Origin: an uncultured Acidobacteriota bacterium
Lineage (GTDB): Bacteria; Acidobacteriota; Thermoanaerobaculia; Multivoradales; UBA5704
DNA: 64,000 nucleotides
NCBI GenBank assembly: GCA_963770895.1
Contig: CAVYRF010000002.1
Coordinates: forward strand, 1,600,001-1,664,000
Reading direction: 5' to 3'
Every line of letters begins with the position of its first letter. The stretch's first letter is position 1. The translations under genes were made by a program, and so were the position numbers. The notes beneath the pieces are model-generated. The model had not been told where the DNA came from. It searched no databases and saw only the letters and a list, made by a program, of their open reading frames with translations. Positions 15,080 to 57,959 of this stretch are shown piece by piece.

Positions 15080-15263
15080 GATCGATGCCTCCGGCGTCCG
15101 GGCGCGCTGGGGAAAGGCGGTGCAAGCGAGGTGCCGAACCGTGGCCGCGGCCAGGCTGGGGGGATTGTGCCGGACCAGGCCGCCCCCAGGCCGCTGGCCG
15201 ATGCCTGCCCCGCGGGGTGGGAGTGTCCCCTTTGCGGGGCGGGCGTGCCGCCCCGATAGGACG

Positions 15264-24305: not shown

Positions 24306-24656
24306 GGGGGCGTACCGGTTTCGACGGGGAACAAGAGCGGCGCGGAGGATGCGTGTCGAACTCCACCCGTAAAGTGGAACTTGTAACTGCGAACGATAAC
24401 TTCGCACTCGCGGCCTAAAAAGCCGTGACGTACCGATGGGAGCGCGACCCGCGGCGCTCATCGGTGCGACGCTAAAGCGGGTCAATGGGTGCGGATCGCC
24501 CTGCGCCGCATCCTGATACAAAGCAAGGCTGGCCGCCGCGCCAGGTGCCTTCTTCCAACGCGCGGTCCGGCGAGATTTTCAAATAGAAGGCTACGCACGT
24601 AGAAGCTTCTGCACCGCGTTTTCCGGACGTGGGTTCGATTCCCACCGCCTCCACCA
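24306..24656 (+). ncRNA. ssrA: tmRNA, tag peptide ANDNFALAA*
   Basis: 5' GGGGGCG..GGTTTCGAC, 3' GGTTCGATTCCCACCGCCTCCACCA, tag codons at 24389-24418. Confidence 0.97.
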
Positions 24657-46963: not shown

Positions 46964-47053
46964 TGGCGGAGAGGGTGGGATTCGAACCCACGGACCGGTT
47001 GCCCGGTCAACGGTTTTCGAGACCGCCCCATTCGACCGCTCTGGCACCTCTCC
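46964..47053 (-). tRNA. tRNA-Ser(CGA)
   Basis: GGAGAGG acceptor stem, anticodon arm GCGGT-CTCGAAA-ACCGT, long variable arm, GGTTCGAATCC, ends GCCA. Confidence 0.97.
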
Positions 47054-47076
47054 TATCTGGTTCTTACGCAAAACGA

Positions 47077-47166
<90 letters not shown>

Positions 47167-47947: not shown

Positions 47948-48082
47948 CGGCAGTGGCCCGCGAAGGGTTCGGGTCCTGTGCATCGACGGCTTCCGAACCT
48001 CGTCAGGCCCGGAAGGGAGCAGCGATAAGGTATGCCGGCCGAGTGCCGCAGATCCACCGGAACCCTTCGTAGGCCACTGCCG
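47948..48082 (+). ncRNA. ffs: Signal recognition particle RNA (small, 4.5S type)
   Basis: Helix-8 motif TCAGGCCCGGAAGGGAGCAGC. Closing stems CGAAGGGTTC/GAACCCTTCG and CGGCAGTGGCC/GGCCACTGCCG. tadA-ffs-dnaX context. Confidence 0.95.
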
Positions 48083-52471: not shown

Positions 52472-53473
52472 TTGAGCACCGAGAACGTCCTGCGGCAGTG
52501 GGAGCTCTTCTCCCACTTCGCTGACTCACAGCTCGACCGGCTGGCCGGCTGCGCGCAGTGGCGGCAGGCGGAGAGCGGCACGGCGATCGTGCGGGAAGGA
52601 GAACCCTCGCTGGAGGCCTACTTCATCGCCGCCGGCGGCGTCCGCATCCAGCGCAAGACTCCTTACGGTCTGTTCACCCTGGCCACGCTCAAGCCCGGCG
52701 ACCTGTTCGGCGAAACCAGCTTTGTCGACGGCAACGCCCGCTCCGGCGACGCCATGGCGATCAAGCCGTGCCAGCTGATGGCGCTCAATCCCCAGGCGAT
52801 CTCCCTGGCGATGGAGAGCGATCCGGCGTTCAGCGTCTCGCTGCATTGGGCGTTCTGGAAGAGCCTCTCCTTCAAACTGCGCCAGACCAACGACCAGCTG
52901 ACCCGGTTCTTCTCCAAGTCGGGCAAGCCGCCCAGCGTCCAGGCGCCCGCGGCGCCAGGCGTCGCCGACGACTTTCGCGTCGACCTGGCCTCGAAGCGCA
53001 AGCTCTTTCAGGAGCAGAAGCTCTCCAGCCTGGAGATCAACTTCCTGGCCTCGCTGTCGCGCGAAAAGAAGTTCGCGCCCCACCAGCAGATCTTCCGCGA
53101 GGGCGAGCAGGGCGACGAAATGTACGTCCTTCTGGAAGGGCGGGTGATGATCAGCAAGTTCATCCCCGGCGCCGGCGAAGAAGCGCTCGCCTTCCTCGAG
53201 CGCGGCGACTACTTCGGCGAGATGGCGCTGATCGACAACCGCGAGCGCTCGGCGGACGCGACCGCCTCCGACCAGGGCGCCGTCGTGCTGGCCATTCCGC
53301 GCGAGGTGCTGGTCGGCATCCTCGACATCCAGCGCGTTTCTTCGCTGCGCCTGCTGCGCCTGCTCTGCACCCTGGTGGCCCGGCGGCTGCGCGAGCTGGA
53401 CGACAAGATCATCGGCTGGTTCATCCTGGCCGGCGGCTCGGCAACCGGCTGGCCGGTCGGCCGCGACGCCTGA
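52472..53473 (+). CDS. Tandem cyclic-nucleotide-binding domain protein (no HTH seen)
   Basis: Two CAP_ED-like domains, IVREGE..GDLFGETSF..RSGDA and IFREGEQGD.MY..GDYFGEMALID..RSADA. TTG start inferred. Confidence 0.9.
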   Translation: MSTENVLRQWELFSHFADSQLDRLAGCAQWRQAESGTAIVREGEPSLEAYFIAAGGVRIQRKTPYGLFTLATLKPGDLFGETSFVDGNARSGDAMAIKPCQLMALNPQAISLAMESDPAFSVSLHWAFWKSLSFKLRQTNDQLTRFFSKSGKPPSVQAPAAPGVADDFRVDLASKRKLFQEQKLSSLEINFLASLSREKKFAPHQQIFREGEQGDEMYVLLEGRVMISKFIPGAGEEALAFLERGDYFGEMALIDNRERSADATASDQGAVVLAIPREVLVGILDIQRVSSLRLLRLLCTLVARRLRELDDKIIGWFILAGGSATGWPVGRDA

Positions 53474-54731
53474 CCCCGCCGCCGCTCGACGCGACACTCG
53501 CGTCCGCTTCCGCGCCTTTCACCAGCGCCAGCACCTTCGTCACCAGGGACGAAGTCGCCAGCCCCGCCAGCTCGTCCGCCGCAAACCACCCGCCTGACAC
53601 CGCCTCGGCAACCTCGTCAGCCTCGTGGTCGCGGCGACCGGCGGGCCAGGAGGCAGTTTCGGCATCGCTCGCCGGCGTGTCAGCCGATGCGAAGGCCGTT
53701 GCCTCCCAACCGGGAGCATTGGCTTGCTCGCCAGGAGGGATCGTGCGGCCGTCGCCGGTCGCCGCATCCCCTGATGCGAGCTGTTCGGCAAGACAGACGG
53801 TCACTTCCAGGTTCCGGTAGGTGATCCCGTGCCGCACCATACCGATGGGCGCCGCCAGGCGCCAACCGCCGCCGTATTTTGCCGCCAGCGCGGCGGCGGC
53901 CTCCACGGCGCCGTCCTGCCCGTCGATCCACGGCAGCTCCCAGGTGCCGGCCAGGAGGCTGCTCCGTTCGGAGCGCCGAAACAGCAGCACGCTGCCCTGG
54001 CGCCGGGCCACCGCCACCACCAGGCGCCGGATCTCGCCGGCACGCCGCTTCCTGGGCGGCGGGTAGCTCTCCTGCGTGCCGCTCGCCGCCGCCAGGCACC
54101 CGCGCCGCACCGGGCAGAGCAGGCAGCGCGGCCGCTGCGGCACGCAAAGGGTCGCGCCCAGCTCCATCAGCGCCTGGTTGCTGTCGCCGGGCCGCGCCGG
54201 ATCGACCAGCGCCGCCGCCGCCGCCAGCAGCCGAGCGCGAGCGTCACGGCGCTTGGGATCCGCATCCAGCGCCAGCCGGCGCGCCATCACGCGCTCGACG
54301 TTGCCGTCGAGCACCGGCGCCGCGACGCCGAAGGCGATGCTCGCCACCGCCGCCGCCGTATAGGCGCCGATGCCGGGCAGAGCCAGCAACCCCGCGACCG
54401 TGCGCGGGAACCCGCCCGCCGCCACCACCTGCGCCGCCGCGGCGTGCAGCTGCCGCGCCCGCCGGTAGTACCCCAGGCCCGACCAGAGCGCCAACACCTC
54501 GGCAAGCGGCGCCCGCGCCAGCTCCTCGACGCTGCCAAAGCGCGCCAGGAAGCGCTCATAGAATGGCAACACCGCCTCCACGCGCGTCTGCTGCAGCATC
54601 ACCTCTGACACCCAGATCCGGTAGGGGTCGGTCGTCCGCCGCCAAGGCAGATCCCGCCGATGCCGATCAAACCAAGCCAACAGCTCCGCCGCGTCCTCGC
54701 TCGCCGTCATCGCCGGATCACCCGCCTTCAT
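53421..54731 (-). CDS. mutY: A/G-specific adenine glycosylase
   Basis: RDLPWR..PYRIWVSEVMLQQT, WSGLGYYRRAR, LPGIGAYTA, DGNVERV and NQALMELGATLC..PRC..CP...C. Confidence 0.96.
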   Translation of the reverse strand: MKAGDPAMTASEDAAELLAWFDRHRRDLPWRRTTDPYRIWVSEVMLQQTRVEAVLPFYERFLARFGSVEELARAPLAEVLALWSGLGYYRRARQLHAAAAQVVAAGGFPRTVAGLLALPGIGAYTAAAVASIAFGVAAPVLDGNVERVMARRLALDADPKRRDARARLLAAAAALVDPARPGDSNQALMELGATLCVPQRPRCLLCPVRRGCLAAASGTQESYPPPRKRRAGEIRRLVVAVARRQGSVLLFRRSERSSLLAGTWELPWIDGQDGAVEAAAALAAKYGGGWRLAAPIGMVRHGITYRNLEVTVCLAEQLASGDAATGDGRTIPPGEQANAPGWEATAFASADTPASDAETASWPAGRRDHEADEVAEAVSGGWFAADELAGLATSSLVTKVLALVKGAEADASVASSGGGVRRRGRPASRLPSRRPG

Positions 54732-54854
54732 CCGCGTGGTTGCCTCGGTACCGCTATGATCAGAGCCCGCTATGGCCTCCAGCAGCGGATCTTAGACCCG
54801 GTGCGGGAGTAGCCCGTGTCAGAAACTCACTACACCTGTTCGTGGCGGCAGCCA

Positions 54855-55049
54855 GGGCTGCCGCCGGGCTCGGCACTCCCGGCAGGTCGGCCGGGGCTGC
54901 CGCCGGGCCCGGCACTCCCGGCAGGGAAGCCGGGGCTGTCGCCTGGCCCGGCACTCCCCGCAGGTCGGCCGGGGCTGCCGCCGGGCCCGGCATTCCCGGC
55001 AGGGAAGCCGGGGCTGTCGCCTGGCCCGGCACTCCCCGCAGGGAGCAAG
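54855..55049. repeat. 39-bp tandem repeat, 5 copies
   Basis: GGGCTG(C/T)CGCC(G/T)GGCCCGGCACTCCC(G/C)GCAGG(TCG/GAA)GCCG at 54855, 54894, 54933, 54972 and 55011. Confidence 0.95.
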
Positions 55050-55470
55050 CTGCCAGAGGGGTGGACGCGCCGCACGCCACATCGGCTCACCGCGCCAATC
55101 TATACAGCGTAAAGGCCATTTTGGCGTCAGCAGTTGGCGGTTCGGCGTACGAATTGCTGCGGGAGCGCTCGGCGCCAGCCAGCGATGAAGCGGCTCCTGC
55201 GAGCGGCACCCTGGAGAGAAACCATGAACTGGTTGGTTCCAGGGGTGCCGGTCCGCCCGGTATCCGTCCCAGACACCCGCTCGGCCCCGCCGCCGGAAAC
55301 CCAGATCGCGGAGGCCCAGCGCTGGAGCGCACGCTGACGCCTCGGCCAAGTCTCGATGCGCCGCGCCGCTCGGGCCGGGTGTCTTGTGAGGAGGGCGCAA
55401 GGGTCTTGTAGAGAGGTCGGAAGGTTGGCGGCAGGCAGGCACCTTACTCTGGACTAACGATAGTTTGGAA

Positions 55471-55487
55471 TAGGCATGGCGCTTGCA
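55471..55487 (+). promoter_or_regulatory. Putative sigma54 (-24/-12) promoter
   Basis: TAGGCATGGCGCTTGCA has GG(55473-74)-N10-GC(55485-86), close to the TGGCACG-N4-TTGCW consensus. Confidence 0.6.
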
Positions 55488-55497
55488 GATGTTAGGA

Positions 55498-55699
55498 GAC
55501 AACATCGAGAAACCACGAGGGGGAGGCTCCCAACCAACCAACCAAATCCCACCAACCGAGAAGCCCTCAAGGCATCTCAACCTCAATCAAAGCCCTCCTA
55601 AACCCCCTATAAACAGGGGTATAGCCTCAAAGCCCACCTCCTAAAAAGGGACCTCCCCCCTGAAGTGCCCCGGCGAACAGCCGGGGCACTTTGTCTTTT
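55498..55699 (+). ncRNA. Candidate ~200-nt A/C-rich small RNA
   Basis: Bounded by a sigma54-like promoter and an intrinsic terminator. A 5'/3' closing stem encloses a G-poor loop. No convincing ORF. Confidence 0.55.
55663..55699 (+). terminator. Rho-independent terminator
   Basis: AAGTGCCCCGGC-GAACA-GCCGGGGCACTT followed by TGTCTTTT. Confidence 0.85.
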
Positions 55700-56476
55700 A
55701 GGCCTACCTCTTTGCAAAAAGGTTTTACGCACCCGCTCTCTCCAACGTCGCCCCACAAGCCAGGGAGCCCCGCCTCCCAGCCAAGCGCACCCAAGCAGAC
55801 ATTCGTCGCAACGACATCGACCGGGCAACCGTGACCGCCGCGGCCCGGCACTCCGCCCATCTGTCGCCCGCAGGAGTCCCCGCGCCCCAACGCCCCTGCG
55901 TTTCCGTCCCTCGGCGGCGCTCTGGCTGCCAAGCGACCATTTTGCCGCCAGGCCTCACAGCTCCGCGAGCCCCAGCCGCTACGACCGAGAGGTGCCCTCC
56001 CGCCTCCGCCACCACTCGCCAAAGAACATCGAGCGCAGCGGCCGCCGTCTGACCTGACCAGCGCCGCCCCGGCACCCACCGCGCCACGCCATACCGCCAC
56101 GCCGTCGCGCCATGCCGGCACGTCGCCGCCACCGCCCCATCACACCACGCACCCTGGGGTGCTAGTTACCTTTTGAAGTCCGCATCCTGGAAACCTCTGG
56201 ACGCACGGATCCCAGCGCTCTGGAGTAGAGCGCTGGGGAGGTCCCAGGTGGATGGGCTGGAGAATCTACCCCTGCGAGAGGGGAACTGGCTGGGCTTTTA
56301 GAGGATGAGACCCGCAGGCGATCTCTTCAAGGAAGGGTGTGGTGCGGTTGGTGGGACCTCCCCCTCGTGCGTTCGTGCTACTCATGCCAAAGACGTTCTG
56401 CAATATGCATACCTGCTTTGGAGAGTAGGATTGCGACCGGGGCCGTTCATGGAGGACTTGCGGAGTCAGGGTGCTG

Positions 56477-56587
56477 TGGTATGATTCGCCGTTGTAGCCA
56501 AGCACGCAAAGACCCGAAGGCAATCGAGCGAGTACTAGTGGATAGGTGTGTGGATTTTTCCACAGACTGTGGATTTTCTGTGGATTT
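56477..56587 (+). promoter_or_regulatory. dnaA promoter with DnaA-box cluster (autoregulatory and/or part of oriC)
   Basis: Extended -10 TG-G-TATGAT (56477-56485). DnaA-box-like AGTGGATAG 56537, TGTGGATTT at 56549, 56568 and 56579, and TTTTCCACA 56556. Confidence 0.8.
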
Positions 56588-56669: not shown

Positions 56670-57959
56670 ATGGCTCAATCCCTCTGGACCCTCTTGCAGA
56701 GACAGCTTCGGCGCCACCTCGATCCCGAGGAATTCGCCACCTGGTTCAGACCCCTCAAGGTACGCAACGACGGCGATCAAAAGCTGGTCCTGCTGGCGCC
56801 CAATTCGCGCTTTTTGCACACTCTGGAAGAGAGCTACCGGCCGACCGTCGATCGCGCCCTGGCCGGCCTTGACGGGCCCGCATTCGAAGTCCTGTTCTCC
56901 CTGGCCGAGGACGAGGCGGAGCCGACCGAAGTGCCGGTCGTCCTGTCGGACTTCAACCCAAAATACCTGTTCCAAACCTTCGTCATCGGCAAGTCCAACG
57001 AGTTTGCCCATGCCGCGGCGGAAGCGGTTGCAAAAAACCCCTCGCACAGCTACAACCCGCTCTTCCTGTACGGCGGCGTCGGCTTGGGCAAGACCCACCT
57101 GCTGCATGCGATCGGCCACGAGATCCTGCGCAACCAGTCTCACCTGCGCGTGCTCTACCTGGCGGCCGAGCAGTTCGTCAACGAGCTGATCAACTCCATC
57201 CGCTTCGACCGCATGCCGGCGTTCCGCGAGCGCTATCGCACGATCGACGTCTTGATGATCGACGACGTGCAGTTCCTCGCCAACAAGGAGCGGACGCAGG
57301 AGGAGTTTTTTCACACCTTCAACACCCTGTACACCAGCCAGAAGCAGATCATCCTGTCGTCCGACTCTTCGCCGCGCAACATCCCGACCCTGGAAGAGCG
57401 CCTGCGGAGCCGCTTCGAATGGGGGCTGATCGCCGACATCCAGCCACCCGACCTGGAAACCAAGGTGGCGATCCTGCAGCGCAAGGCGTACACCGAAAAC
57501 ATTCAGCTACCCGAAGAGGTGGCCGAATTCATCGCCCAGCAGGTGCGCTCCAACATCCGCGAGCTGGAAGGGCTGCTCAACCGGGTGATCGCCTTCTGCT
57601 CCCTGACCGGCAAGCCCATGTCCCTGGCCTTGGCGCGAGAGACGCTCAAGGACATCCTGCCCGAAGACGGCCGCAAGCCGACCAGCCAGGACATCATCAA
57701 GGCGGTAGCCCGCCACTACGACCTCAAGATCCAGGAGATCAAGAGCAAGAACAACTCGCGCCAGGTGGTGATCCCGCGGCAAGTGGCCATGTACCTTTGT
57801 AAAAAGCTCACCAGCCTGTCCTACCCCGAGATCGGCAAGCTCTTCAACGACAAGCACCATTCGACCGTCATGTATTCGGTGGACAAGGTGCAGCAGACCC
57901 GCACCACCGACGCCGACTTCGACCGCACCGTCCAGGCCCTCGAGCAGCGGCTGACTTAG
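56670..57959 (+). CDS. dnaA: Chromosomal replication initiator
   Basis: YNPLFLYGGVGLGKTHLLHAIG, IDDVQFL, QEEFFHTFN, RLRSRFEWGL, NIRELEG, RQVAMYL and HSTV. Confidence 0.99.
   Translation: MAQSLWTLLQRQLRRHLDPEEFATWFRPLKVRNDGDQKLVLLAPNSRFLHTLEESYRPTVDRALAGLDGPAFEVLFSLAEDEAEPTEVPVVLSDFNPKYLFQTFVIGKSNEFAHAAAEAVAKNPSHSYNPLFLYGGVGLGKTHLLHAIGHEILRNQSHLRVLYLAAEQFVNELINSIRFDRMPAFRERYRTIDVLMIDDVQFLANKERTQEEFFHTFNTLYTSQKQIILSSDSSPRNIPTLEERLRSRFEWGLIADIQPPDLETKVAILQRKAYTENIQLPEEVAEFIAQQVRSNIRELEGLLNRVIAFCSLTGKPMSLALARETLKDILPEDGRKPTSQDIIKAVARHYDLKIQEIKSKNNSRQVVIPRQVAMYLCKKLTSLSYPEIGKLFNDKHHSTVMYSVDKVQQTRTTDADFDRTVQALEQRLT

Follow-up and report, generated by a model that had tools for sequence, protein, structure and literature searches.

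Several described systems offer a frame for the element considered here. In Vibrio, the small RNAs (sRNAs) Qrr1-5 have sigma-54 promoters, exist as several paralogues with a shared single-stranded region and a terminator, and act by Hfq-dependent base pairing. CrcZ, CrcY and CrcX of Pseudomonas, sometimes neighbouring paralogues, are likewise driven by sigma-54 (through CbrB) and sequester Hfq/Crc by means of repeated single-stranded motifs. CsrB and RsmZ are modular RNAs that display one short motif many times and serve as protein sponges, and in RoxS/RsaE and the actinobacterial 6C RNA, sRNAs of Gram-positive bacteria, C-rich, G-poor exposed regions pair with G-rich mRNA, with C-runs in hairpin loops targeting Shine-Dalgarno sequences. 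GlmY and GlmZ also have sigma-54 promoters. PMC7073468 and PMC4152352 present this enterobacterial pair as homologous sRNAs, one base-pairing and the other a decoy for RapZ. Here we analyse a stretch of 64,000 nucleotides (nt) from the genome of an uncultured Acidobacteriota bacterium (contig CAVYRF010000002.1, positions 1,600,001 to 1,664,000; hereafter the window), in which an earlier note had marked 55471-55699 as a candidate sigma-54-dependent regulatory RNA next to the replication origin. We argue that this element, which we call copy 1, is the gene of a ~200-nt sigma-54-driven sRNA, and we favour for it an Hfq-type base-pairing function; to this whole statement, mechanism included, we assign a probability of about 0.5.

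In its logic this RNA resembles Qrr, CrcZ/CrcY and GlmY/GlmZ, but it belongs to none of these families. With Qrr1-5 it shares the sigma-54 promoter, the paralogous copies, a common exposed region and a terminator; on the other hand, there is no similarity in sequence or structure, the RNA is twice as long and has a long closing helix, its copies lie in tandem whereas those of Qrr are dispersed, and no activator gene adjoins it. The likeness to CrcZ lies in being a sigma-54-driven RNA with repeated single-stranded motifs, but the motif here is CC[ACU]ACC instead of the A-rich CA motif, A-R-N-A-R-N is depleted, and there is no Rfam match. GlmY/GlmZ differ in showing no similarity, the copies here being in tandem and no RapZ-like logic being inferable. 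From CsrB/RsmZ the RNA is set apart by a depletion of GGA, by a CsrA that was not found and by a different promoter type. RoxS/RsaE and 6C have C-rich, G-poor exposed regions in common with it, but here CCNACC stands in the linkers, CCUC is not enriched and, again, Rfam returns no match. To our knowledge, CC[ACU]ACC differs from all the motifs used by sponges (GGA, A-R-N).

Homologues were collected with two covariance models, R1 built from 8 sequences of the same genus and R2 from 62 diverse copies. The predicted features of copy 1 are the following.

55472-55487, + strand: sigma-54 promoter, AGGCATGGCGCTTGCA, with the -24 GG at 55473-55474 and the -12 GC at 55485-55486
55498-55699, + strand: sRNA copy 1, predicted transcript of ~202 nt (R1 170.4 bits, E 1.5e-51)
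55519-55531, + strand: closing helix P1, 5' arm, GGGGGAGG-C-TCCC (UCCC in the RNA), found in the minimum-free-energy (MFE) and centroid folds
55532-55557, + strand: linker L1, G-free and single-stranded, with CC[ACU]ACC at 55534, 55538, 55548 and 55552, unpaired in the MFE and consensus folds
55558-55578, + strand: hairpin P2, family consensus GAGAUC...GAUCUC
55579-55603, + strand: linker L2, single-stranded, holding CCUC and the first CCUCCUAAA of copy 1
55604-55619, + strand: hairpin P3, CCCCU-loop-AGGGG, the most conserved element, followed by GUA-A-CC
55620-55647, + strand: linker L3, single-stranded, with CCCACC at 55633 and the second CCUCCUAAA, which is unique to this genome
55648-55659, + strand: closing helix P1, 3' arm, GGGACCUCCCCC (DNA reading GGGACCTCCCCC), pairing with 55519-55531
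55661-55699, + strand: intrinsic terminator, a 14-pair hairpin (55661-55693) followed by TCTTTT ending at 55699

The promoter region reads TAGGCATGGCGCTTGCA at 55471-55487, with GG and GC exactly 10 nt apart, which predicts a transcription start at about 55498. By itself this match is not significant: the pattern occurs twice in the window against 0.57 expected, and 9 of 100 shuffles reach two. The other exact GGCAY-N5-TTGCW match, GGCACCTCGCTTGCA at 15121-15135 on the reverse strand, is itself a candidate sigma-54 promoter. We take the copy 1 promoter to be real because it is conserved across copies, and not because of the single match. Among 81 copies from the same bacterial family, 76 have GG[CT]A[CT]-N5-NTGC 15-45 nt upstream of the model start; one of the five without it lies at a contig end, and the other four are the third, mutY-proximal copies of genus g1. 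A TGGCAC-N5-TTGC-type promoter also precedes 11/11 copies from other families.

The genus alignment keeps the GGCAC-N5-TTGCA block, while the sequence 5' of the promoter is unrelated, the ten bases after the block are variable, and conservation returns exactly at 55498. A promoter followed by a transcribed RNA would leave just such a signature, and it bears out the GG-N10-GC promoter and the predicted start near 55498, both first proposed from this one sequence. The sigma factor itself, which the earlier note had named as a point to check, is encoded in the genome (rpoN, PF04552, 220.8 bits), together with about 20 strong matches to the enhancer-binding ATPase domain PF00158 (Sigma54_activat). 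Taken together, the evidence for the predicted sigma-54 dependence is as strong as sequence evidence can be.

The 202-nt RNA of copy 1 is predicted to fold with -72.6 kcal/mol, against a shuffle mean of -45.9 (z = -6.85), and 0/200 shuffles were as stable. The proposed closing helix (55519-55531 with 55648-55659) appears in both the MFE and the centroid fold. The predicted terminator, with a hairpin of 14 pairs, ends at 55699, as had been claimed. P1 encloses 116 nt (39% C, 38% A, 13% U and 10% G, more exactly 10.3%), in agreement with the ~115-nt loop described before, and its G-poverty is indeed atypical: among 816,410 sampled 116-nt windows of this genome (8.16 Mb, 71% G+C), only 5 have so little G (or, for the other strand, so little C). 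Within or at the edge of this region lie CAACCAACCAACCAAAT (55531-55547), AAGCCC three times (55561, 55590 and 55630) and CCTCCTAAA twice (55594-55602 and 55637-55645). The AAGCCC and CCUCCU repeats to which attention had been drawn are thus present where they were said to be, but AAGCCC and the second CCUCCUAAA are not shared even within the genus.

Comparative data bear the fold out. When 85 distinct sequences were aligned to R1, 93.1% of cells were paired, against 80.8% in column shuffles, and 32/39 pairs had changed on both sides, a number that fell to 11-20 once the 3' partner was slid by 1-3 columns. In the same 85 sequences, such double-sided changes affect 10/12 pairs of P1 (95.7% of cells paired), 5/6 pairs of P2 (99.2% paired) and 12/12 pairs of the 3' hairpin (helix 6). 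P3 (CCCCU/AGGGG) is near-invariant in sequence, with rare compensated doubles (CUUCG/CGAAG in L100 and CCCCC/GGGGG in L099), and other families of the order replace P2 by fully compensated variants. A fourth, 3-pair helix predicted by RNAalifold was without support (49% paired). Because the R1 alignment had been fitted to the model, 21 diverse copies were also aligned plainly with MAFFT and tested anew, and RNAalifold again recovered P1, P2 and P3 with 11/17 pairs compensatory.

The element was found by blastn in 7/9 other genomes of the genus, at 73-79% identity. With R1, the RNA is present in 90/92 genomes of the family, in 1-6 copies each (2 in 40/41 genomes of genus g5, 3 in 11/11 of g7 and 1 in 8/8 of g10), and with R2 in 114/151 sampled genomes of the order, with all 12 families represented; this count includes the unpublished genome G333, without which it is 113/150. 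Among the carriers are closed genomes such as G091, G094, G016, G054 and G254. Genomes without an R2 match cluster in genus g18 (0/19 with the RNA) and family f7 (8/21). Beyond the order, a class-level sample of 114 genomes gave one weak 73-nt match (29.9 bits), and an exact-pattern scan of one genome per species across 185,579 species gave 35 loci. Of these, 33 are labelled Thermoanaerobaculia, Thermoanaerobaculaceae, Thermoanaerobaculum or Acidobacteriota, one Holophagales and one Sphingobium. The Holophagales locus (L068) carries dnaA, dnaN and mutY whose products are close to those of this lineage (68-79% identity for DnaA/DnaN, 55% for MutY), so its label looks like a difference of classification; the Sphingobium locus (L092), an 8-kb contig of a metagenome-assembled genome (MAG), may be mis-binned. 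The labels place the window itself in an uncultured lineage of Thermoanaerobaculia. As far as sampled, the RNA family appears confined to one order of Thermoanaerobaculia (Acidobacteriota). We conclude that the comparative evidence makes the element a gene, and we hold the gene, its promoter type and its structure, taken together, to be very probably as described.

Its product is most likely an RNA. The copy 1 transcript holds no ATG, and its longest open reading frame (ORF) has 11 codons. Across the homologues, 34/85 are without ATG, and the longest ORF measures 24 codons in the median and has no conserved position. For the two short ORFs on which the regulatory-RNA interpretation might have foundered, translation would have to begin within the promoter, before the predicted +1, and relatives have neither ATG; in place of the one at 55476, 7/7 congeners read GGCACGG, and the genus alignment is scattered with 1-2 nt indels. 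Rfam 15 at gathering thresholds gave no match at copy 1 in the window and none in 12 homologous loci, and with E values up to 10 the interval 55300-55900 gave nothing beyond a terminator-level match to BjrC68 (RF02353). The latter, the best Rfam match, reaches 26.9 bits against a gathering threshold of 39; it resembles our element in that a GC-rich terminator and a U tail come after a small hairpin, but the aligned conserved columns are essentially the terminator alone, and copy 1 is not a member. A full-text literature search (main texts) yielded no account of such an RNA. Based on these findings, the promoter conservation and the covarying helices, the proposal of an undescribed sigma-54-driven regulatory RNA holds, and on the sequence evidence the family is a new one, order-wide and with unusual synteny and a CC[ACU]ACC motif.

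The exposed parts of the RNA carry this motif. Across the family, the linkers contain 9% (L1), 10% (L2) and 15% (L3) G, and because they are purged of G they cannot pair internally. CC[ACU]ACC, mostly CCAACC, averages 2.71 occurrences per RNA where dinucleotide shuffles give 0.50 (highest of 50: 0.63), with at least two in 66/84 RNAs and at least three in 49/84; since the sequences are related, these counts describe conservation and not independent trials. Copy 1 carries five (55534, 55538, 55548, 55552 and 55633), and CCAACC is found in L1 of 43/85 and in L3 of 62/85 sequences. The anti-Shine-Dalgarno signal that had been read into the CCUCCU motifs did not hold up: CCUC is present in L2 of 67/85 sequences, yet family-wide it occurs 1.29 times per RNA against 1.56 in shuffles. 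The CrcZ-type and CsrB-type signals failed as well, with A-R-N-A-R-N at 1.24 per RNA against 2.56 in shuffles and GGA at 0.88 against 1.81, and CsrA was not found in the genome (95% complete).

The locus lies between mutY and dnaA and contains a second copy, which the earlier note did not list. Its other features are given below.

53421-54731, - strand: mutY, ORF, a conserved neighbour, from which copy 1 points away here
56206-56385, - strand: sRNA copy 2, a paralogue convergent with copy 1 and divergent from dnaA (R1 59.7 bits, E 1.9e-17; R2 97.8 bits)
56399-56414, - strand: sigma-54-type promoter of copy 2, AGGTATGCATATTGCA, with GG at 56413-56412 and GC at 56401-56400
56549-56585, strand not assigned: four DnaA-box-like heptamers WTCCACA between copy 2 and dnaA, 4/9 of the matches in the window falling within these 37 nt
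56670-57959, + strand: dnaA, ORF, a conserved neighbour in many relatives

Copy 2 is more diverged and weaker than copy 1: its 3' hairpin is without a U run, and its promoter is a weaker match, with GGTAT in place of GGCAC. In relatives the canonical order is dnaA (leftward), one to three RNA genes (rightward) and mutY (rightward). According to blastn, the orthologues of copy 2 are the first, dnaA-proximal copies in L015, L029, L031 and L032, and that of copy 1 is the relatives' second copy. Copy 1 is inverted with respect to the canonical array of all relatives examined and converges on copy 2, from which it is separated by a C-rich spacer of 506 nt (55700-56205) with no counterpart in congeners. 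Short contigs from four DNA runs of two studies (X1, 55015-55682 and 55681-56010; X2, 55266-55667 and 55695-56059) reproduce the left flank and copy 1; none bridges the terminator to the right-hand junction, so the local order is only partly confirmed.

The neighbourhood is conserved. In 41/41 relatives' loci examined, mutY shares the strand of the last RNA copy and stands just 3' of it, and among the 23 loci in which the nearest upstream mutY start could be assigned, it lies 25-157 nt past the RNA 3' end in 22 and 621 nt past it in L029. The search for homologues near dnaA in relatives, suggested at the outset, was fruitful, since tblastn placed dnaA next to the RNA in 29 of the loci fetched; genera g1, g4, g6 and g7 have it as the second neighbour, as do other families. 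dnaA was not found beside the RNA in the g5 loci fetched by genome search, where the neighbour is a putative Zn_protease-like gene (judged by eye from the alignment). Unlinked copies also occur: the second copy lies on another contig, or far off on the same contig, in family f5 (G040, G217, G051 and G298), and likewise in G198 of family f8. Among the ORFs adjoining the unlinked copy of G040, neither mutY nor dnaA was recognised by eye; its neighbours appear to be a sensor-like protein, a DUF1684-like ORF and an oxidoreductase, with no functional clue.

The placement next to the origin was only partly upheld. Copy 1 certainly adjoins dnaA, and the cluster of DnaA-box-like heptamers lies close by, but the cumulative GC-skew minimum of the contig (G000:C2) falls at ~1.98 Mb, ~0.33 Mb from dnaA (1.657 Mb). 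From 1.6 to 2.0 Mb the skew curve is shallow, and therefore the exact position of the origin is uncertain; that copy 1 adjoins it is only probable.

In genus g5 (L037-L056), a conserved block, ATGTAGAAATGC-N15-GCATTTGTACGAATGAAA, is found upstream of the first copy's promoter, at a distance estimated from the alignment at roughly 120-170 nt. It contains an inverted repeat, GTAGAAATGC/GTACAAATGC (GTAGAAATGC-N15-GCATTTGTAC), and is a candidate activator site or additional promoter. Genus g1 has a related block, TTGCAAAAAAG-N15-ATGCAGGAATGG, after the second copy and ahead of the promoterless third copy or mutY.

Other repeats occur in the window and its genome. Between mutY and copy 1, at 54808-55080, a G+C-rich repeat of 39 nt stands about six times in tandem. 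We rejected these copies as enhancer sites of the sRNA because the same repeat occurs at several other genome loci, with related arrays on G000:C2 near 301,450, at 430,770-431,140 and at 5,386,650-5,386,810; they look instead like a dispersed minisatellite-like element. An element containing GGAGGCTCATGGTTGGTTGAGGTGG has at least four copies in the genome (window ~39757; G000:C1:1500174; C2:3483794; C2:3325145) and is probably a mobile or repeat element. At gathering thresholds, the Rfam matches of the window are tmRNA (24306-24656), small SRP RNA (47967-48066) and two tRNA genes (46967-47166).

Considering all the above results, we favour the following course of events. Sigma-54 RNA polymerase, switched on at the copy 1 promoter by an enhancer-binding activator, would transcribe from the GG-N10-GC element (55473-55486), and the intrinsic terminator would end the transcript at 55699. 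The architecture of the RNA is fixed, as the comparison shows: the 12-pair, GC-rich P1 closes a domain of ~115 nt in which P2 and P3 are separated by three G-purged linkers displaying two to four CC[ACU]ACC motifs. Acting in trans, the C/A-rich linkers would pair with G-rich GGU-N-GG stretches of mRNAs with the help of Hfq, which would grip the 3' hairpin and U tail as it does in the classical sRNAs that depend on it. Having several paralogues in tandem may serve dosage or allow separate inputs. Action in trans is suggested by the fact that copy 1, inverted with respect to mutY, keeps all its features, and by the distant copies in f5 and in one f8 genome.

Assistance by Hfq is favoured because hfq is present in the genome (60.6 bits, G000:C1:1982992-1983171), because 46 of the 81 family copies have a U-rich tail (the other 35 have the hairpin only), and because genus g18 is without both Hfq and the RNA. 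Hfq (PF17209) was found in 129/151 genomes of the order and in 0/19 near-complete g18 genomes (e.g. G043, G053 and G146), which makes g18 the only clade of the order in which Hfq was not found, and also the largest without the RNA. Of the 151 genomes, 111 have both, 3 have the RNA without Hfq (MAGs, 69-90% complete), 18 have Hfq without the RNA, and 19 have neither, all of them from g18. A loss of sigma-54 was ruled out as the reason for the missing RNA in g18, rpoN being present in 5/5 genomes tested, and no diverged copy was found beside mutY in three g18 genomes (best score 7.3 bits, filters off).

Several observations weigh against this reading. The joint absence in g18 is one evolutionary event, 18 Hfq-positive genomes are without the RNA and 3 incomplete MAGs show the RNA but no Hfq, so the link between Hfq and the RNA is only a hint and no test of correlation. 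In addition, 35/81 copies are without a U tail. As for the input, none of the ~20 PF00158 matches lies inside the window, which holds no activator gene, and neither an equivalent of the g5 repeat nor an enhancer site could be recognised for this genome. Among the listed sequencing runs that contain the copy 1 sequence, none is of RNA. As for the output, the prediction of targets for the loop motifs, recommended from the start, came to nothing: exact complements of 11-14 nt to the loop are at or below chance in the own genome (59 12-mers against a rough expectation of ~110, and no 13-mer that looks special), and among its mRNA leaders with clustered GGUUGG none was convincing. Finally, the same motif in all paralogues and families and the near-invariant P3 fit a protein partner equally well.

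Some sites touching the question of targets deserve mention. At ~1,844,230-1,844,260 on the reverse strand of G000:C1, a hairpin GAGGGG-UUGGGUUGGUUGGAA-CCCCUC exposes a loop whose sequence is complementary to the CCAACC repeats; it stands in a divergent intergenic region, ~75 nt before an ORF that by eye is aldo-keto-reductase-like. As the only such site found, it is a lead, a candidate target or partner RNA. Left of copy 1, TGGTTGGTTCCAGGGGTGCC (55230-55249) is 75% complementary to the copy 1 L1 region at 55525-55544 and corresponds to codons 2-8 of a short ORF (ATG at 55224, preceded by GGAGAG), but the complementarity may be due to chance because this flank has no counterpart in relatives. 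A further target search, by duplexfold on 75-nt windows, was dropped, as it returned long G:C-rich duplexes that are physically meaningless.

Because the paralogues share an identical motif and P3 is invariant in sequence, the alternative that we take most seriously is a protein sponge or decoy, in which sigma-54-driven bursts, often from two or three tandem genes, would titrate a protein that binds single-stranded CC[ACU]ACC and/or P3, much as CsrB/RsmZ, CrcZ or GlmY do with their proteins. The motif stands two to four times per RNA in G-free linkers, enriched five-fold and identical across paralogues and the families of the order; P3 and its flanks (GCCAAAUUCCCCU...ACAGGGGUAGA) are conserved beyond the needs of pairing, multi-copy arrays such as those of g5 (two copies, 40/41) and g7 (three copies, 11/11) are common, and the target searches yielded no mRNA. 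We nevertheless regard it as rather unlikely, since no candidate protein emerged: CsrA was not found, GGA and the A-R-N motif (Hfq distal face, Crc) are depleted, and no conserved gene for an RNA-binding protein is linked, the neighbours being mutY, dnaA and, in g5, the putative Zn_protease-like gene. Two to four motifs are also few beside the known sponges. A broader variant would make the C-rich loop a decoy for a general factor binding C-rich single-stranded RNA, whether Rho, titrated by a mimic of its rut site held closed by P1, or a KH-domain protein, and would thus reprogram termination or RNA decay genome-wide. Bursts from two or three sigma-54 promoters would then answer a nutrient or stress signal, and the dnaA-mutY placement would, by way of transcripts reading through into mutY, tie genes of replication and repair to this signal; we consider such a scheme quite improbable.

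The conserved position of mutY raises another explanation, in which the RNA would mainly be the 5' leader, or a processing product, of the mutY transcript. With the array directly upstream on the same strand, read-through of the hairpin would put mutY under sigma-54 control, and besides the synteny (41/41 loci), the 3' hairpin is not followed by a U run in 11/18 last copies of g5, and the g1 third copy without a sigma-54 promoter precedes mutY in four loci. On the other hand, each copy is credited with a promoter and a 3' hairpin of its own, the paralogues of an array have been conserved as separate units, unlinked copies exist in f5 genomes and G198 (f8), and copy 1 faces away from mutY yet keeps a perfect promoter, structure and terminator. 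A role in cis is plausible for the last copies of canonical arrays but cannot explain copy 1, and as a general account it is improbable. Hardly credible is a small-protein gene: both short ORFs exist (ATG 55476, 41 aa; TTG 55483, 53 aa), but their starts inside the promoter, the missing ATGs, the unconserved ORF positions, the indels and a conservation pattern that follows the helices all speak against it. The same negligible weight goes to a chance resemblance or non-functional remnant beside dnaA, for which one could cite the insignificance of the single promoter match and the fact that expression of copy 1 is a prediction; conservation throughout the order, compensatory changes in four helices and a promoter at nearly every copy stand in its way. 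We therefore retain, at the probability given above, the reading of an Hfq-assisted sRNA that pairs with mRNAs in trans.

Metagenomes are almost the only source of knowledge on Thermoanaerobaculia and their relatives, which are abundant Acidobacteriota of soil, and our literature search (main texts) found no published account of RNA regulators in them. The family gives this group a clearly defined, order-wide sRNA with a readable input (sigma-54 and an activator) and a readable output surface (the linkers and the invariant hairpin), and the covariance models R1 and R2 are ready for annotating it in genomes and metatranscriptomes. Its position between dnaA and mutY raises the question of a tie to replication or repair. 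Moreover, the family is a clean case of tandem sRNA paralogues and offers a handle on the sigma-54 regulon in an uncultured lineage.

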